A stretch of 42,884 nt of DNA, taken from a virus. A program made the position numbers and the translations under genes. Shown here piece after piece: positions 16,061-22,594 of this stretch. Each line of letters begins with the position of its first letter. Positions within the stretch are counted from its first letter, which is position 1. Under the pieces are notes generated by a model. It made no database searches and was not told the DNA's origin. It saw only the letters and a list, made by a program, of their open reading frames with translations. The stretch covers positions 1-42,884 of the IMG/VR virus record IMGVR_UViG_3300045988_069332. One strand, 5' to 3'.

Positions 16061-16130
16061 TAATTGCCAAAATAAGGTGATTAAGTTCACGTTTTTGTGA
16101 GTTTTCTGCGAATTGTCGCATTAAATAACG

Positions 16131-16484
16131 TTAGAACCCCTGTTTCAGGTACTGTTCTGCGATGCTTTGTATCGCCCCGCGCCCTCCCATGATCGCGTCC
16201 CGCAGGTAGGGGCGACCGGCCATTTTATAGGTGCCGTCATGGACAAAGGGCGCGTATTCCAGCGAGTTCCCGATGTCAACGGTGTTCTCCCCGCCTCGCT
16301 CTACTTCGTACTGTACGTCCCGCATCAGATCGCCGGTCTGCCGGATGGGCTTGCCGTAGCCACTCTCCATCTGGCCGAGGGTCAGTTCCACGCCCTTCTG
16401 CCCGATAGCATACAACGCCGCTTTGACGTTCTGTTCCAGCTTGGCTTTCACTTCGGGGGAATGGTCGTCGAATCTTACGGGCAT
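16131..16484 (-). CDS. HK97 gp10-family head-tail/neck protein (117 aa)
   Basis: TGDLMRDVQYEV...VDIGNSLEYAPFVHDGTYKMAGRPYLRDAI matches the gp10-family pattern. Its position before the scaffold gene is unusual. Confidence 0.65.
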   Translation of the reverse strand: MPVRFDDHSPEVKAKLEQNVKAALYAIGQKGVELTLGQMESGYGKPIRQTGDLMRDVQYEVERGGENTVDIGNSLEYAPFVHDGTYKMAGRPYLRDAIMGGRGAIQSIAEQYLKQGF

Positions 16485-16506
16485 GGGTTAGCTCCTTTCG
16501 GGTATG

Positions 16507-16535
16507 AAAAACCGTCCGGCCTTTCGGCTGGACGG
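16507..16535 (-). terminator. Strong intrinsic terminator inside the structural operon
   Basis: Stem ccgtcc..ggacgg (16512-16535) followed on the minus strand by a T-run. Lies just after the 73-aa ORF and before the RBS of the 16484 gene. Confidence 0.75.
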
Positions 16536-16536
16536 C

Positions 16537-16758
16537 TTAGGAATAGAACACTTTTTCGAGATCAACATCAAGACCAAATTCTTTTAAATCTTGATCGTTT
16601 ATATCCAAATCATTTTTGATCGTATCGAGAATTTCATAATATGCAAGCTTTTTCCCTTTATAAAAAGCATCATCCTTATTTTTTCTCTCTTCTTCTAGCG
16701 CATCGTTGGCGTTGTCAATAACTCTAGCAATGATGTACTTAATAGTTTCTTCATTCAT
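16537..16758 (-). CDS. Small acidic helical protein (73 aa), immunity-protein candidate
   Basis: AT-rich. Overlaps the MuF stop by 8 nt. Sequence NDALEEERKNKDDAFYKGKKLAYYEILDTIKNDLDINDQDLKEFGLDVD. Confidence 0.6.
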   Translation of the reverse strand: MNEETIKYIIARVIDNANDALEEERKNKDDAFYKGKKLAYYEILDTIKNDLDINDQDLKEFGLDVDLEKVFYS

Positions 16759-17956
16759 AATAATCCCCCCTTTTCTTTAATTCTTCTATTCTTCGCAGAC
16801 GAGATTCCTTAAAATTTTCTATTTCTTTTTTCCAATGTCTTTTCAGCCCTTCTTGTTCTTGAGGCTCCTTGTCGGTCCAATTTGAGACAGTGTTCTCAGG
16901 ATGCCGAATTTTTTCTTGGTGTTCTGCAATTCGCTTGTCGAACGTTTGTATTGACTTCCTAATGGAAGCTGTTTTTTGCCGTTGCAAATCCTTTTCTTTG
17001 CTGTTCGAAAACTGTTGCAAATCCAGCTTCATTATACCATGTTTGCCAGTATTTTCAAGGTTTTCAGTGCTTTCTTTCCGCTTTTCTTCCGGCGGCAGCA
17101 CCACAGGCACAAGGACGCAATGGCAGTTGATCACATCCCCGGCCTTGCCGTTAGGGTCGCCGGGGTAGTCCATGACGCTGCCGAGGATGGTGTGAAACTT
17201 CTCGGACGCATCGATCTCCTTGCCGTTTAGCTCAATATGGCTTTCGCGGCTGTTGACCATGCGGGTTGACCAGCGCTTTCGCATGTTGATTCCCATCTGC
17301 TCCGCCTCATGGATGGTATCGCTCCGCGCCTGCGATTGCACGCGGTTCCGCTCGGTCTGGGCGATGCGCTTCGCGCAATAAGCGCTGTTTCCCATCACGC
17401 TGCGGATGCGGTGGATCAGCTTCTTCTGATCTTCACCCAGCATGACGGCCTGTGTCATTTCGTTCTGCAGCCTCCGCATCATGGCCGGAGCTTCCCGCAG
17501 GTTTTGATAGGCGATCTTGCTCATGGGCGGCTGGCTGTCCGTGAGGATGATTTCCGCCTGCGCCGTCGTGGGCACAGAATAGGACAGGTTCACCCCAGCT
17601 TGCTGATCGACCAGTTCCGCCGTGTAGAGGCGGTTAACATGGTAGACATTCGCGACGGTCTCCCGCATGACAGGTTCGACCTCCACGCCCGCCTGCTGGA
17701 TGGCCTTTTCGATGTTTTTGACCACATTTTCCCGGCGGAGCAGTTCACGTGTGAACCCGCGCCGCCATTTCAGCACCTTCTCCGGGGTGTCGTAATAGGC
17801 TGGGGGCTTGATTTTCCCCTCATCCACGTCCCGGATTTTCCGCAGGAACCGTTCGCAGCTTTTCACTGCCTGTTTGAGCGCATCGCCGTAAACCGATTCG
17901 ATTCGTTTTTGGAGTGCCTTTTCCAGCTCGTCAGAGGCCCGCAAAGCCTTGTCCAA
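16751..17956 (-). CDS. Head morphogenesis protein (MuF/SPP1 gp7 family) with a foreign C-terminal domain (401 aa)
   Basis: TTG start with AGGAGGGG 6 nt upstream. MuF core ...AKRIAQTERNRVQSQ...GDVINCHCVLVPV. The last ~110 codons are AT-rich. Confidence 0.85.
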   Translation of the reverse strand: MDKALRASDELEKALQKRIESVYGDALKQAVKSCERFLRKIRDVDEGKIKPPAYYDTPEKVLKWRRGFTRELLRRENVVKNIEKAIQQAGVEVEPVMRETVANVYHVNRLYTAELVDQQAGVNLSYSVPTTAQAEIILTDSQPPMSKIAYQNLREAPAMMRRLQNEMTQAVMLGEDQKKLIHRIRSVMGNSAYCAKRIAQTERNRVQSQARSDTIHEAEQMGINMRKRWSTRMVNSRESHIELNGKEIDASEKFHTILGSVMDYPGDPNGKAGDVINCHCVLVPVVLPPEEKRKESTENLENTGKHGIMKLDLQQFSNSKEKDLQRQKTASIRKSIQTFDKRIAEHQEKIRHPENTVSNWTDKEPQEQEGLKRHWKKEIENFKESRLRRIEELKKRGDYYE

Positions 17957-17959
17957 GGT

Positions 17960-19405
17960 TTACCCCTCCTGTCTGTCAGGGTTCGCATTCACAGCCTGCT
18001 GCTGGCCGTCTATGGCCGTCTGGAGGGCATCCAAGGACGGAAGACCGCTGACGCGCTCCGCTTCCAGCGCCTCCAGGATGCCGGGGATGTCGTCCTGACT
18101 GATATAGGGGTTCAGCTTGAGGGCGGTCTCTTGATCGATATCGGAGCGCATGGTGTAGATGTCCTCCACCGTCTCCGACTTGTTGGTGATCTGCTGGCGC
18201 TGGAAAGCGATCTCCTCCGTGTCCACGCCCAGCAGAGAAAGCACCTGCTGAACGAACGCGAAGCATTGCCACTCGTAGTGGTCGCACTTGAGGTTGAGGT
18301 TGGTCATGGCCGCTTGGATGGCTACGTTGGTAAGGCTGCCGCCGGTCAGCTCGCTCATAGAGAGCGCCATATAGTCCTGATACAGCGCCCGCTCCAGCAG
18401 CGTCAGCGCCGTCTGCCGGGCCTGAAAGGGCACGTCGATGGTGCGCGGCTCCGCGCTGGAGCTTCCAGCCCCGTCGGACACGCTCATGGCGACCTTCAAC
18501 TCTTGGATTTCCTGAATGACTTGCAATGCCTGATCGGTGCTGCCGCCGAAGTTGTTCAGCACCCAGTACACGTCATTCGCCCGGTCGAGGTTGTCGCCGA
18601 AGTCCGAGGTGATTTTGTCGTACAGGTCGATTTTTGCCCGGATGGAGGGGGTCAGCTCGCTTTCATGCTCGTCGTTGGCATACAGGGGTACCACCGGCAG
18701 GCCGGAATAGCCCTCGCCGCCCACGACCACTTCCCCCAGCGCGTCCCGACGGACGATCTGCTTGTAGGCCCGCTTGGGCTGCTCCTCGTCGTACTTGCCG
18801 TCCTTGGCGCGGTAGACGGTCACGCCATCTGGCTCAAAGACGCGCATATACAGGGGCCGCTCGCCGGAGAGCTGCCAGAACTGGATGGCCGCGCCCACAG
18901 CCCCGGTCAATTCGTCCAGCAGGCCCACGCAGCCGGACAGCAGGTCGCGGGCCGCGCTGATGGGCTCCAAATGGTCAAGGTTCCAGTAGCCGTAGCTGAC
19001 CCCATGCAGCAGCGCCGCCTCGCCGATCTGCTGCAGCTTCACGTCAAAGCCCCGGCCCAGCCGGTCTTTCAGCGCCGCGTCCTCCAATGTAACGCCGTTG
19101 CCCAGAAGAAACTGGTTCTGCTGGCAGACGAACCGCCGCAGGAACGCCGAGGACACGCGGTTGCCCACCACGCGGACGGTGTCGGCCACCTTGCGGGTCA
19201 GGCCGTCTGCGTCCTTTTGCTCCCGGGTCTGGACTTTCAGCAGGTACTTGTCGTCGAGGGTTGGGTTGCAGCCCGCGAAATAGCGGTTCGCGTCCAGCGC
19301 GGCAACAAAAAACGCGGAGGCCTTGTAGCTCTCCACGATTCGGCGGGCATTCTCCGGGCCGCCGCCCAGATTAAGCCAATCCTGATAGGTGTAATCCGTA
19401 AACAT
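17960..19405 (-). CDS. Portal protein (SPP1 gp6-like, 481 aa)
   Basis: Size and position between TerL and MuF. Typical portal N-terminal region. Confidence 0.85.
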   Translation of the reverse strand: MFTDYTYQDWLNLGGGPENARRIVESYKASAFFVAALDANRYFAGCNPTLDDKYLLKVQTREQKDADGLTRKVADTVRVVGNRVSSAFLRRFVCQQNQFLLGNGVTLEDAALKDRLGRGFDVKLQQIGEAALLHGVSYGYWNLDHLEPISAARDLLSGCVGLLDELTGAVGAAIQFWQLSGERPLYMRVFEPDGVTVYRAKDGKYDEEQPKRAYKQIVRRDALGEVVVGGEGYSGLPVVPLYANDEHESELTPSIRAKIDLYDKITSDFGDNLDRANDVYWVLNNFGGSTDQALQVIQEIQELKVAMSVSDGAGSSSAEPRTIDVPFQARQTALTLLERALYQDYMALSMSELTGGSLTNVAIQAAMTNLNLKCDHYEWQCFAFVQQVLSLLGVDTEEIAFQRQQITNKSETVEDIYTMRSDIDQETALKLNPYISQDDIPGILEALEAERVSGLPSLDALQTAIDGQQQAVNANPDRQEG

Positions 19406-19409
19406 TGCT

Positions 19410-20669
19410 TCACGCTCCTAGGAGGCTGCGGCGGTCTTTGTCCAGCAGTCGGCAGGCCACGGCGGCGCTGTCCGGCGCGTCGTCATGCTCCGCGTCCTCG
19501 GTATAGTCCATGATCTGGGCGATGTACGCCCGGTCGGTGCCGTCCAGAAACACGATATTCCTCCACCATTTCCGCAGATAGGTGGAGATTTTAAGGTACT
19601 TGTTCTGATACTCGGCATAGATGCGGGCCTCTTGGCCCCGGTTGCGTATCTCCTTGCCCAGATACCCCTTGTCGCCGTTGCTCTCGCAGTACACCGGGGC
19701 GCATTGGAGCCGCTGGCACTCGGTGAGGGCCGCGTCCAATACGGTATCCACATGGGCCCGCCACAGGCGGCCATACAGATACAGGGTGTCGCCCCGGCGC
19801 TTGGCGCAGGTCAGGGCGGTATAATCCTCGCCGCCGTAGGCCGCGTCGATGTGGGCGATGCCGTCCCGCAGGAGGGCGGCGTTGTCGGTGCGCCCCGGCT
19901 GGATGTCAAACAGGGCGTTTTCGGCGGCGATATGCCGCAGCTCGTAGTTTGCCGCGAACAGGGACGGGGACATGCTGGCTTTCAGCTCGGCCAGCTTTTC
20001 CGGGGTTATAAGGCCGGTGGTGTAGCAGTCGTGCCGCTCTGGCTCGGCCACCAGCGTGAACGCGTCCTCCTTGTGCCACGGGGTGCCGATGAACACGATG
20101 CGCCCGTCGCGGGTGACGATGTTCCTCAGCTCCTGTACAACGGCCTTTGTGCGCTCCCGCTCGGCCCGGCTGACGCGGTCTTGGAGGTTTACAACGTCGT
20201 CGCAGACGATCAGGTTCGCGTGCTTGCCGGTCATGCTGCCGCCGCAGCCGCAGCCCAGCAGCTGCTCGGCTCCTCGCGGGCTGTCGTACACGTTCACGGT
20301 CAGGCTGTTGGCGGTGGACTTCATCAGCTCCACGTTCGTCCGCAAAAGCAGCGCCGCCATGTACCGAAAGCCCTCGTTTTCAAACACCTTCTTGGCCTGC
20401 GCGATGCTCTCCACGGTATCCGCATCAGTTTTGCGCATGAATAGGGCGTTCTCGCCGTGGTGCAGCACGCACCACATAGCCAGCGCCACGGAAAGGCAGG
20501 AGGATTTATAGCTCAGGCGGTGGGCCTGCAGCGTATAGTCCGACGTGCCGTAGAGGATGTGCTGCATCCATTTCCCGTGGAGCTCGTCGGTCAGGTCTCG
20601 GAAGCCAACCATTCGCCCCACCGCCGCCGGGTGATAGCGCCAGATGTTCCAGACTTCTTCCCGGGTCAC
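19410..20669 (-). CDS. terL: Terminase large subunit (419 aa)
   Basis: GTG start, GTGA-coupled to TerS. ATPase motifs (...LIVCDDVVN...) followed by a nuclease half. Confidence 0.85.
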   Translation of the reverse strand: MTREEVWNIWRYHPAAVGRMVGFRDLTDELHGKWMQHILYGTSDYTLQAHRLSYKSSCLSVALAMWCVLHHGENALFMRKTDADTVESIAQAKKVFENEGFRYMAALLLRTNVELMKSTANSLTVNVYDSPRGAEQLLGCGCGGSMTGKHANLIVCDDVVNLQDRVSRAERERTKAVVQELRNIVTRDGRIVFIGTPWHKEDAFTLVAEPERHDCYTTGLITPEKLAELKASMSPSLFAANYELRHIAAENALFDIQPGRTDNAALLRDGIAHIDAAYGGEDYTALTCAKRRGDTLYLYGRLWRAHVDTVLDAALTECQRLQCAPVYCESNGDKGYLGKEIRNRGQEARIYAEYQNKYLKISTYLRKWWRNIVFLDGTDRAYIAQIMDYTEDAEHDDAPDSAAVACRLLDKDRRSLLGA

Positions 20670-21025
20670 CGTATCTCACCCTTTGTTTCCTCCAGCAGCT
20701 TGTCGAGTTCGGCTTTCGCCTCGTCGGATAGGGTCGTGGTCTTCACATCGATCTGGTCGGGCGGCAGCTCGCCGATCATCTTCAAGCCCAGTTTGTACCA
20801 CTCCGGGGATTTATCCATGTTCAGCACCAGCTTGGCCGCTAGGGTCTTTCGGCGGGTGCTGCCGTCTTTGTTGGGCTCATCCAGCAGGGCGCGCATTTCC
20901 TCCGCGATGCCCCGCCGCTCGGAGGACGCCTTTTTTGCGTTTTCCCTCGCGGAACCGTCAGCGGAGCTGAAACGATGGCCTTTCTTCAAATTCGCGAGGC
21001 TGTTTGGGTGCTGGCCTCTTGGCAT
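20666..21025 (-). CDS. terS: Terminase small subunit candidate (119 aa)
   Basis: ATG at 21025 (MPRGQHPNSLANLKKG) with GGAGG 8 nt upstream. Lies directly upstream of TerL. Confidence 0.65.
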   Translation of the reverse strand: MPRGQHPNSLANLKKGHRFSSADGSARENAKKASSERRGIAEEMRALLDEPNKDGSTRRKTLAAKLVLNMDKSPEWYKLGLKMIGELPPDQIDVKTTTLSDEAKAELDKLLEETKGEIR

Positions 21026-21873
21026 TTCCATTTCCTCCATTTTTCGTTTATAATTTTCGGGCAACAGGCGTTCCAATCGACGTGATGGTGGCAGCGGCGA
21101 TTGGAGGTACCCATTGCCGAAACTTTCACGCACGACGGCGCATAAACGACGGAATAAAATGTCTTGACATATGTTCCACCGTCAAGATAATTTTCCGTCA
21201 TACCACCTTTGGACTTTTGCGTCATTTCTTGGTTTAATCCCGCTTTTAACGTCGTCAAATACAGCTCTCCGCGTATTCCGCCGGTCACATACGTATTTAC
21301 GTCCTCATTGATGCGCCCCACAAAATTGATCGGGTTGTCAACCCGGCAAATAAAACTGTTCATGGCTTTTCGCAAGAGCTGCTGCTTCCATCTGGCGCTT
21401 TTAATGCCGCCGATCAAATCACCACCCTGTGCAATCGCCACGCTTTTTGCACCGGAGTCATCCAAAAATTGGATCAACGCTTCAAACACATGGTCAAGCT
21501 GTTTAATACGCGGATGCCAAAGCTTACCGTTTTTCTCGACCAAATAATGGAAAGCTGTATAATCATCATCCAGTTCGATAAAATATTTCAGTCCAAGATC
21601 ACGCGCGATTGCAAACGCTTCATTTCTTGCAAAAATAATGCAGCGGCGTTCTTTCGACGTATCGCCAACATCCGTTTTTTTAGCGCGATCTTCTTTGCAA
21701 AACTGAACGACTTTATCACCGTAGATTCTGCGGTATTCTTCTTCTTGATCGTCTTCGTCATCAATGACGATGTAATAACGCCCTGTGTAGCCAGCCTTTC
21801 GTAAAGATTTTACCGTTTTGATATTGTTGGCTCGCCCATGGGACAGGATCAAGGCCGCAAAATCGTCACGCAT
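20986..21873 (-). CDS. GT-A-like glycosyltransferase candidate with DxD motifs (possibly TET-associated GT/GREB1-like) (295 aa)
   Basis: ATG at 21873 with a GGGAGGAA RBS. Motifs YYIVIDDEDD, YFIELDDDY, GGMTENYLDGGTY, RRCHHHVDWN. AT-rich. Confidence 0.45.
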   Translation of the reverse strand: MRDDFAALILSHGRANNIKTVKSLRKAGYTGRYYIVIDDEDDQEEEYRRIYGDKVVQFCKEDRAKKTDVGDTSKERRCIIFARNEAFAIARDLGLKYFIELDDDYTAFHYLVEKNGKLWHPRIKQLDHVFEALIQFLDDSGAKSVAIAQGGDLIGGIKSARWKQQLLRKAMNSFICRVDNPINFVGRINEDVNTYVTGGIRGELYLTTLKAGLNQEMTQKSKGGMTENYLDGGTYVKTFYSVVYAPSCVKVSAMGTSNRRCHHHVDWNACCPKIINEKWRKWKCQEASTQTASRI

Positions 21874-22594
21874 CGGTATCTTCCTCCCGCAAGCGATCAA
21901 TTTCCGCGCACATCGTCACATATCCATTGGCGATCGCGTCATCCACATCAATAATTACAAGCGCACTTCTTTCCATCAGCTTTTGGCATTCGGGAGAAGC
22001 AGCAGCATAAAATTCCGCGATTTTCGTATAATCGAAAACGATATGCCGATAAGCCGCAATACGTAAAAAATTCTTCTCCATATCCGGCAGCTCGGACGCG
22101 TTGATTTCTTCGATCATGCTTTGGCATTTTGTATCGTCGTAGAGGTCAACAACGGGCGGGGGTTCACCTTGCACCTCATATTGAGGAATATTCACAGCCG
22201 ACGTATAGGTATTTTCAATTTCTGTTTCCAGTTCTTTTTCGTCGAAGCCGAATTGAGCCATATCCATGCTGATCCCGGCAAGCTCTTTCGAAAGTAAATC
22301 CATATCCCAGTCGGCCAACTCGCCGGACTTGTTGTCGGCCAATCGGTATGCCTTGATCTGCTCCTCGGTGAGGTTATCCGCCACGACAACGGGCACCTCG
22401 GCCAGCCCCAGCTTCCGGGCGGCCTTGTAGCGGGTATGACCGGCGATAATTACGCCGTCCTTGTCTACGACAATCGGCTGCTGCCAGCCAAATTCCCGGA
22501 TGCTGGCGGCCACGGCATCCACGGCGCTGTCGTTGTTCCGTGGGTTGTTCTCATACGGGGTGATTTCCCGGATGGGTCTTTGCAATACCTCCAT
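21866..22594 (-). CDS. ParB/Srx N-terminal-domain (nuclease-type) protein (242 aa)
   Basis: IREITPYENNPRNND...IVVDKDGVIIAGHTRYKAARKLG is a classic ParB-N domain. No methyltransferase motifs seen in the C-terminal half. Confidence 0.8.
   Translation of the reverse strand: MEVLQRPIREITPYENNPRNNDSAVDAVAASIREFGWQQPIVVDKDGVIIAGHTRYKAARKLGLAEVPVVVADNLTEEQIKAYRLADNKSGELADWDMDLLSKELAGISMDMAQFGFDEKELETEIENTYTSAVNIPQYEVQGEPPPVVDLYDDTKCQSMIEEINASELPDMEKNFLRIAAYRHIVFDYTKIAEFYAAASPECQKLMERSALVIIDVDDAIANGYVTMCAEIDRLREEDTDA

Follow-up and report, generated by a model that had tools for sequence, protein, structure and literature searches.

A low-GC cassette of two overlapping genes at the 3' end of a phage MuF gene, with an L27-like leader and a predicted embedded promoter at the carrier-cargo junction

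We know of no account that works out how the effectors borne by phage MuF proteins are separated from their carriers, or how lysogens are protected from them. In the MuF polymorphic toxins described so far (Jamet et al. 2017, PMC5576092; Zhang et al. 2012, PMC3482391), a MuF domain encoded next to the portal gene of a temperate phage bears a C-terminal extension that differs among near-identical phages and is followed by a small downstream open reading frame (ORF), the hosts being Bacillota. Here we describe an element of the same layout in a stretch of viral DNA of 42,884 nucleotides (nt), IMG/VR record IMGVR_UViG_3300045988_069332, positions 1 to 42,884, which we refer to as the window. In this element a low-GC cassette is joined in frame to the end of a MuF gene and encodes a basic C-terminal cargo domain (protein A) and an overlapping acidic partner of 73 amino acids (aa; protein B). 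Unlike the described MuF toxins, the cargo and partner of the window fall into none of the toxin or immunity families described, an L27-type motif stands at the junction together with an in-frame promoter-like sequence, and minor capsid protein 2 and, in one locus, a portal protein serve as further carriers of the cargo family. The MuF polymorphic-effector system is the known framework here, and the element has every structural property of that system, the functional property of being a toxin aside. We found no description of the cargo/partner family, of an internal L27-type site as an inter-domain hinge, or of a promoter translated as a linker, and these are what we regard as new. On balance we favour a reading in which MuF has captured a mobile two-gene cassette, the cargo of which would be packaged, freed by the host L27-processing cysteine protease Prp, and neutralised by its partner. 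The cassette and its carrier have the following features.

16505..17098, minus strand: whole low-GC cassette (linker with promoter, L27-like leader, cargo, partner gene, terminator), from alignment and composition
16751..17956, minus strand: MuF ORF, 401 aa, from the ORF table
17099..17956, minus strand: MuF (SPP1 gp7-type) core, residues 1-286, the resident phage gene, from Pfam; GC content at third codon positions (GC3) 0.76
17031..17058, minus strand: predicted sigma-A-type promoter, in frame L-E-N-T-G-K-H-G-I-M, with -35 TTGAAA (17058-17053), a 16-nt spacer and extended -10 TGgTATAAT (17039-17031), from a consensus scan
17006..17029, minus strand: L27-like leader K310-L-D-L-Q-Q-F316 / S317, with a predicted Prp-type scissile bond F316 (17011-17009) / S317 (17008-17006), from a motif scan and the family profile
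16754..17008, minus strand: cargo domain (protein A), S317-E401, 85 aa, isoelectric point (pI) 9.6, predicted helical hairpin, from AlphaFold2 and alignment
16537..16758, minus strand: 73-aa acidic partner (protein B), pI 4.4, with ribosome-binding site GGGGGG (16770-16765), from the ORF table and sequence
16507..16538, minus strand: predicted intrinsic terminator at the right end of the cassette, a GC-rich hairpin (16538-16509) followed by U5, from folding
16485..16504, minus strand: junction segment with ribosome-binding site AAAGGAG (16498-16492) for the next gene, which encodes 117 aa, from sequence and alignment

The block at 16505-17098 is a single horizontally acquired insertion of foreign composition. 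When aligned at the DNA level with a phage that encodes the short form of MuF (L001), the window differs by one clean indel, which opens just past CCTGTGGTG (~17098) and closes immediately ahead of the ATG of the 117-aa gene (16484). In two contigs coding for a 295-aa MuF with a 98%-identical core (L001 and L002) the 117-aa gene comes directly after MuF, without the 73-aa ORF, and in the tail-bearing contigs (L005, L006 and the window) the 73-aa gene is also present. In the cassette-free phages the start of the 117-aa gene overlaps the MuF stop and is translationally coupled to it, whereas in the window that gene has the separate ribosome-binding site listed above. An earlier, sequence-only reading of this DNA had proposed that a single module had been swapped in, made up of the tail, the 73-aa ORF and the terminator, as the 98%-identical-core phages confirm, and the ORF table, GC content, folding and motif scan agree with where it had placed the MuF ORF, the 73-aa ORF, the terminator, the AT-rich block and the motif. 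It had also let the foreign part open at the methionine of the motif, which proves to be too late: the MuF core ends at ..GDVINCHCVLVPVV (V286), the left edge of the cassette lies at ~17098/17083, right after V286 or after LPPEE, and the first 22 codons are a linker with the promoter-like site, preceding that methionine. The cassette thus comprises MuF residues 287-401, the 73-aa ORF, whose start overlaps the MuF stop by 8 nt (ATGAATGA), and the strong terminator.

GC content is 0.29-0.41 over ~16500-17075 against ~0.6 on both sides, and 16501-17100 is the lowest-GC 600-nt stretch of the 42.9-kb window (0.378). GC3 falls to 0.38 across MuF codons 287-401 and to 0.30 for the 73-aa ORF, with 0.75-0.84 in the portal, 117-aa, scaffold and capsid genes, and the GC content of the tail is 0.39 as against 0.54 expected under the phage's own codon usage. 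Because GC3 is low and GC falls under the codon-usage expectation, the drop is synonymous and goes beyond amino-acid composition, which rules out a by-product of the Lys/Glu/Asn-rich make-up of the protein. Cassette GC is under flank GC in almost all of ~60 related loci. We lean towards a low-GC Bacillota background as the source, with in-frame capture at the MuF 3' end of a temperate siphovirus.

The C-terminus of MuF is polymorphic at a fixed junction. Among MuF homologues (n = 498), those with cores 88-98% identical to that of the window split into four length groups: proteins of 293-296 aa that end a few residues past VINCHCVLVPVV; proteins of ~400 aa with the same tail as the window; proteins of 400-540 aa with unrelated C-terminal domains (PF15644, HExxH, ParB and a TDKQFGKKVGKHA-type domain that we take to be PBECR-like); and proteins of 577-580 aa with an intein within the core. 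The junction after VINCHCVLVPVV is the same whether such a core has no tail, the tail of the window or another tail, and the PF15644, HExxH, ParB and PBECR-like tails of the sister phages are what the sequence-only reading had anticipated in expecting C-terminal variability from one junction. Two linker variants and two tail variants occur in all four combinations (P0002, P0003, P0005, P0007), which points to recombination at the identical ..GGTATAATGAAGCTGGATTTGCAA.. junction. We also note that the intein-like insertion, found in homologues of 568-580 aa (P0042, P0044, P0075, P0078, P0080, P0096, P0119) and matching PF14890 in most of them, splits the core VINC/HC motif and that the core resumes with ..HNCHCVLVPVV; the equivalent site in the window is at ~17120-17125.

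The cargo and its partner form an obligatory gene pair that extends well beyond MuF, and copies of the partner without the cargo exist. A word-indexed search with the tail alone returned 4 proteins, which were free-standing forms. Tail-bearing proteins were picked by a local tail-only hidden Markov model (HMM) from 18,895 HMMER matches, mostly MuF cores, and loci were scanned for with a 9-sequence subset of a 32-sequence cargo alignment, using one genome per species. The genome scan gave 61 cargo loci, nearly all in Bacillota (Lachnospiraceae, Ruminococcus, Oscillospiraceae, Christensenellales, Peptoniphilus, Enterococcus, Selenomonadales), and a scan of IMG/VR gave 47. By local HMMs, the cargo is followed downstream by a partner homologue at all 49 distinct genome junctions and at all 21 viral ones, with a gap of -7 to +20 nt and rarely more. 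The free-standing cargo proteins, 88-91 aa in length, begin MLRMNLQFFAEKD.. or MNLQFFAE.., and on their contigs a 76-aa homologue of the partner overlaps the cargo stop; on one 6.7-kb low-GC contig the free-standing pair has its own predicted promoter and terminator and non-phage neighbours. Beside a free-standing cassette (observation at L007:5067-5542) an IS30-like transposase fragment lies upstream and a frameshifted ORF pair downstream, the sequence of which is reminiscent of ToxN/AbiQ-type toxins; this would put the cassette among mobile elements or in a defence island.

The partner family comprises 275 database clusters. One homologue, 90% identical to that of the window, is on 403 contigs, one source labelling it Candidatus Limiplasma, and such copies stand at at least two ordinary chromosomal sites without the tail gene, where the last ~45 nt of that gene and the terminator hairpin are left, a pattern known for orphan immunity genes. 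Nothing in our analysis supports the name "transposase" that NCBI gives to a homologue of the 73-aa partner. At two unrelated chromosomal sites (L014:5950-6400 on a 2.76-Mb contig and L017:5950-6400 on an 82-kb contig) the partner gene, the stub and the terminator hairpin are common to both, and the common unit extends ~150 nt further with two more hairpins; this has the look of a small unit that has been duplicated or is mobile.

AlphaFold2 models the cargo domain, with a mean predicted local distance difference test (pLDDT) score of 86, as two long helices (model residues 24-46 and 60-91) joined by a conserved H-P-x6-W loop, and across the 32 diverse members of the alignment the invariant or near-invariant positions are H, P, W, G, HW, E, F and R. 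The partner is predicted to form a hairpin and two short helices (pLDDT 95), and a four-helix A:B heterodimer is a reasonable guess. In the basic helical effector that the sequence-only reading had envisaged, the charge (pI 9.6) and the predicted hairpin stand, whereas profile and structure searches of the tail and the 73-aa ORF gave no match to a toxin family; the acidity that it had ascribed to the 73-aa protein holds (pI 4.4). Neither protein matches a described toxin, immunity, toxin-antitoxin or defence family in NCBIfam, Pfam or PADLOC, and against BFVD the sole significant match of the tail is the window's own MuF. A YwqH-like match in 5 of the 32 members (best E 1.5e-4, below cutoff) and Foldseek matches to the hairpins of ribosomal L29, L35 and S15 were treated as coiled-coil noise.

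Among toxin/immunity pairs, CdiA-CT/CdiI and Rhs are known for immunity genes kept without the toxin. Like these pairs and the type II toxin-antitoxin pairs, the cassette consists of two small overlapping genes, one encoding a basic and one an acidic protein, that are mobile and of which the second can be kept alone with a stub of the first; unlike those pairs, it has no homology to their families and its first gene has a predicted protease-removable leader. Invariant synteny, opposite charge, the partner without the tail gene and a slot shared with real toxin domains are the context for a toxin/immunity reading, and we regard it as evenly balanced whether protein A is harmful, or at least antagonistic, and is neutralised by the binding of B. 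The tail might instead be an extension that is dispensable and has a structural or assembly role, such as a coiled coil on the portal, the scaffold or the DNA, with the 73-aa protein as an assembly chaperone, no antagonism between the two, and the leader playing the same assembly role as on the scaffold and capsid proteins of phage 80alpha. That both proteins are predicted to be plain helical hairpins with only sub-threshold, coiled-coil-type matches would suit this explanation, as would the facts that all carriers are head proteins and that every known phage use of the leader is in assembly proteins (PMC5744158). However, phages with 98%-identical cores lack the tail entirely, sister phages use the same slot for enzymatic effector domains, free-standing cassettes and B without A occur in non-phage chromosomal contexts, and the cassette has foreign composition and its own predicted promoter and terminator; we consider an assembly extension distinctly improbable.

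Bacillota are reported to have the long form of L27 together with Prp; the consensus of the L27 leader is MLxx(D/N)LQ(F/L)F'A(S/H)KK, and the determinants in the crystal structure of Prp with substrate are P1 Phe, P3 Gln, P4 and P6 Leu and a small P1' residue (PMC9405229). The window has in common with the known Prp substrates, namely Bacillota L27 and the capsid and scaffold proteins of Staphylococcus aureus phage 80alpha (PMC5744158, PMC9405229), Leu at P6 and P4, Gln at P3, Phe at P1 and a small P1' residue. Its MKLDLQQFS at 17032-17006 (M309-S317) is the sole L27-type pattern match in the six frames of the window, and L-D-L-Q-Q-F'S fits the Prp positions except for Gln at P2. We scored the leader across the family as xx[LIMT]QxFx directly before the conserved E-K-D, a pattern that itself sets P3 Gln and P1 Phe, and took as genome junctions the 49 distinct ones that include the N-terminus of the cargo domain. 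The leader is present in 40 of these (12 of 12 free-standing, 28 of 37 fused) and in 20 of 21 viral-contig junctions. The 40 leaders have I/M/L at P6, D/N at P5, L at P4, F/L at P2 and A/S/G at P1', a profile that fits the published Prp consensus, as does the free-standing MLRMNLQFFA. Two Mediterraneibacter loci, from the genus in which Ruminococcus torques is now placed, have the leaders KMNLQFF'S and KMDLQFF'A. The L27 leader of R. torques is MMKMNLQFF'A (PMC9405229, Table 2). The likeness to the L27 N-terminus that the sequence-only reading had pointed out in one protein thus extends, with a canonical L27 leader at the start of the free-standing forms, across the family, and judged by sequence it is a family-wide leader and not a chance resemblance.

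The known Prp substrates are cut near the N-terminus (PMC5744158, PMC9405229). The free-standing cargo homologues resemble L27 in this respect, with the motif at the extreme N-terminus behind a leader of 6-10 residues; for Prp substrates the leader length is ~8-15 residues, and all 12 free-standing homologues have the motif in this N-terminal position. In the window, by contrast, the leader is internal (residues 310-317), its motif lying 310 residues inside the protein at an inter-domain hinge. The residues after the cut also differ, (S/A)-E-K-D in the cargo family as against A-S/H-K-K, and the cargo would be a non-structural protein with a dedicated partner, unlike the building blocks of large assemblies that Prp is known to process. 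In the AlphaFold model the leader falls in the low-confidence N-terminal 20 residues, the remainder scoring >90, which is consistent with a flexible linker. The leader also occurs beyond one cargo family, since a different, unannotated 70-aa MuF tail (LDPWKYKQIYLPKEEY..., in P0258, 394 aa, residues 310-394) follows KLDLQLF/S; in P0348, P0358 and L060 an HExxH or ADP-ribosyltransferase domain comes first, then the leader, then the cargo domain. Taking the motif positions together, we think it likely that Prp cuts at F316/S317.

The likeness could also be a conserved structural feature of the N-terminus of the domain that no protease cuts. The Gln at P2 in the window would fit that view, as would the 9 of 37 fused forms that swap the motif for ..KEAAA or other linkers and keep the domain, and the case for cleavage is itself made from sequence. 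Set against it are the free-standing forms, which begin like L27 and match the 10-residue published consensus; conservation that tracks the known specificity positions of Prp; a segment that is predicted to be unstructured; the finding, in the alignment of 32 members, that the whole leader can be exchanged while the cargo fold stays intact; and the different cargo of P0258 with the same leader. We hold this explanation to be highly improbable. That nine fused junctions have replaced the motif does argue that cleavage is not obligatory.

The sequence-only reading knew of no L27-type site described as a release site for MuF cargo, and this agrees with our search of the literature: in the library searched we found no paper linking an L27-type motif to MuF proteins, the only relevant ones among the matches to the motif strings being the Prp papers. 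The MuF-toxin paper (PMC5576092) has no occurrence of cleavage, protease site, promoter, transcription or recombination, and the text search that returned the polyvalent-protein paper (PMC5512222) counted no L27 there.

A second feature of the junction is a predicted promoter that is read through by the carrier. In the window it matches 11 of 12 consensus positions plus the TG and is unique, with 0.00 such sites expected (100 shuffles). Where the peptide [GDAV]-I-[IM] stands before the leader, 33 of 34 loci encode it as nT-ATA-AT with TTGACA, TTGAAA or TTGCAA 16-17 nt upstream. By a formal score (-35, -10 and TG >= 11/14, within 110 nt of the junction), 32 of the 64 distinct junctions have the promoter, as compared with 0.011 for a stretch of equivalent size taken from the locus DNA as a whole; TATAAT is present in 30 and the TG extension in 29 of these 32. 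On the viral contigs it is found in 18 of 21 junctions. The residue before "II" is G, D, V or A, its codon always ends in T, and the -35 box is read as different residues with TTGnnA kept; since these residues vary while the T ending and TTGnnA stay, the promoter sequence is conserved at the DNA level. The same promoter lies in untranslated DNA before the free-standing cargo copies, and it is also found where MuF meets unrelated cargo (L081, PBECR-like; L082, HExxH; L083, a third type); there AATGGTATAAT encodes NGII(K), and TTGAAA or TTGCAA lies 17 nt upstream (L081:3390-3440, L082:3390-3440 and L083:3380-3430; P0055, P0057, P0084). Because it is present with unrelated cargo, NGII(K) can be regarded as the translation of a promoter, one that serves as a marker of cargo junctions across this MuF clade. 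The embedded promoter is, at the level of sequence prediction, a family-wide feature.

In the commonest layout, even in fused genes, a ribosome-binding site and an ATG at P6 lie 25 nt past the -10 box, and protein A could be made both alone and as a fusion because the fused genes keep these signals. The window, L005, L027 and L031 are different: the spacer behind the -10 box shrinks to 10 nt, a ribosome-binding site is missing, and the -10 box shares bases with the ATG of M309, for which reasons we rejected an internal translation start at M309 in the window. The transcript is predicted to start near 17024, inside the leader codons, and to be ended by the cassette terminator, so that the window's promoter could express only the 73-aa partner, there being no start codon for the tail. 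The terminator folds with -20.5 kcal/mol (z -4.64; 0 of 200 shuffles as stable), and L005 keeps its hairpin, as do the partner copies that stand in chromosomes without the tail gene. From these signals, the embedded promoter and terminator probably provide expression of the partner alone in lysogens. A separate observation is that the cassette terminator stands in the middle of a head-gene operon.

Morons, defined for lambdoid phages, are promoter-gene-terminator units inserted in phage late operons. The cassette likewise has its own predicted promoter and terminator and aberrant composition, lies between two late genes and is absent from close relatives; unlike morons, it has its promoter inside, and translated with, the upstream structural gene, and half of the unit is expressed as a fusion. 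We scanned the N-terminal parts of ten long ORFs ending in the cargo domain against Pfam and found Phage_Mu_F, Phage_min_cap2 (five), Phage_portal (one), VG15 (one), and MuF together with an ADP-ribosyltransferase; all but VG15 are capsid-internal or portal-vertex proteins, and by these domain assignments the carriers are, the VG15 carrier aside, restricted to head and portal proteins. In a Clostridiales genome (L030:1684-3264) the cargo domain is fused to an HK97-type portal (PF04860), and in Peptoniphilus (L060:1231-3261) it follows a MuF plus ADP-ribosyltransferase exoenzyme domain, from which FDLQLF/S separates it.

These observations bear on a further explanation, in which a selfish or moron-type two-gene module, resembling a toxin-antitoxin pair or useful to the lysogen, uses the 3' ends of head genes as a safe landing site, Prp freeing A in the producing cell and leaving MuF unharmed, with no delivery by the virion. 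The cassette is complete outside phages (promoter, ribosome-binding site, leader, A, B and terminator), most fused copies retain their own promoter, ribosome-binding site and ATG, and the conserved promoter and leader DNA would be a plausible recombination target. In addition, the Prp substrates of 80alpha are cut in procapsids (PMC5744158), which makes cleavage before packaging the default expectation. Nevertheless, the carriers are non-random, all those checked being capsid-internal or portal proteins; at 20 of 21 viral junctions the cargo is fused in frame to a long ORF; several lineages, including that of the window, have lost the ribosome-binding site and start and encode A only as a fusion; and some fusions without leader and promoter keep A and B, which suggests that the fusion itself is selected. 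We therefore regard a purely selfish insertion as unlikely, and rank virion delivery above it because the carriers are known carriers of injected effectors (PMC5512222). In the polyvalent proteins (Iyer et al. 2017, PMC5512222), effector domains on MuF and portal carriers are thought to be injected with the DNA, and proteolytic separation is part of the model. As with those effectors, which include the internal proteins of T4 and the Dar proteins of P1, some relatives of the window's protein have an enzyme domain (HExxH or ADP-ribosyltransferase) followed by the cargo domain; in those systems processing is attributed to polyprotein peptidase domains or a prohead protease, whereas the site in the window matches an essential host protease.

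We propose that the ancestral cassette consisted of a sigma-A promoter, a ribosome-binding site, a start, gene A, encoding a small and basic helical hairpin behind an L27-type leader M..(D/N)LQFF/A, a translationally coupled gene B for an acidic helical-hairpin partner, and a terminator. On fusion to a capsid-internal carrier, the frame of the carrier would run through promoter and leader into A. The window phage would then have lost the stretch from -10 to leader, so that A (S317-E401) would arise solely from the late transcript, as the C-terminal portion of MuF, and the embedded promoter would express only B, with the cassette terminator directly behind. MuF-A would be built into the head with the few MuF copies at the portal. 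Prp would cut the flexible KLDLQQF/S linker, most usefully in the newly infected cell, and free an 85-aa basic effector. In producing and lysogenic cells B would bind and neutralise A, probably as a four-helix heterodimer. For the part of this proposal that concerns the packaging of MuF-A and the action of A in the next cell, we see the chances as even.

Several points weigh against the proposal. Prp is also present in the producing cell and could remove A before packaging unless B or assembly protects the site, and in 80alpha the cut in the capsid and scaffold proteins has already taken place at the procapsid stage (PMC5744158); the site would need shielding until after injection, for example by B or by rapid assembly, failing which the cargo would have to remain bound non-covalently or the explanation with A freed in the producing cell would hold. 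We found no experimental precedent for an internal Prp site 316 residues into a protein. The P2 residue in the window is Gln where the consensus has Phe or Leu, even if His occupies P2 of the 80alpha capsid protein and Trp that of E. rectale FlhB (PMC9405229), and 9 of 37 fused junctions without the leader keep the cargo domain, with ..KEAAA or other linkers instead. There is no Prp-like ORF in the window by a weak test with a Prp query sequence, and no L27 gene in any fetched locus. Cargo and partner have no significant match in Pfam, PHROGs, NCBIfam, PADLOC, PDB sequences or by Foldseek against PDB, neither has a structural neighbour below E of about 1 (Foldseek), and the two-helix hairpin has no obvious catalytic site. 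The promoter and terminator are consensus-level predictions.

The setting of the cassette is a late operon on the minus strand, in the order terminase, portal, MuF, 73-aa ORF, 117-aa gene, scaffold and major capsid protein, in which its neighbours are as follows.

19410-20669, minus strand: large terminase, from the ORF table and family search
17960-19405, minus strand: SPP1-type portal, from the ORF table and family search
16131-16484, minus strand: 117-aa HK97-gp10-like gene, from the ORF table

Phage_Mu_F (PF04233) corresponds to MuF residues 163-282 (Pfam, E 1.2e-15), MuF also falls in PHROG head-morphogenesis families, and a BFVD entry with 98% identity to it is named "Minor capsid protein, Siphoviridae sp. 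ctS1E53". A blastn search with 16100-18000 against 50,697 GenBank phage records gave no match. The window encodes an integrase and an HTH_3 repressor-like protein, from which we take the phage to be temperate. Just upstream of the terminase genes, at 20986-21900 on the minus strand, is a TET-associated glycosyltransferase (PF20691, E 2e-34), and relatives of the window phage have ParB_N and methyltransferase genes nearby; together these are hints of DNA hypermodification in the phage's group.

Lastly, the cassette offers two testable, sequence-level answers to how a MuF cargo might be released and how a lysogen might be protected from it. As a release site it copies the substrate of an essential host protease, and a resistant host could not simply lose that protease. 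The promoter embedded in the carrier-cargo linker would also mark the recombination point at which cargo is swapped. More broadly, and tentatively, it is possible that this Bacillota cassette family uses Prp as a universal release switch, whether A stands alone, is fused to a head or portal protein or lies behind another effector, while the promoter keeps the partner expressed in lysogens. In a bolder version A would act on Prp, or on the maturation of L27 and the ribosome, itself, given that it has no enzyme fold and always comes with a Prp recognition sequence. The analysis delineates a two-protein family that is widespread and unannotated in Bacillota of the gut and in their phages, and would extend the range of the Prp-type leader beyond ribosome, capsid, scaffold and tail proteins.

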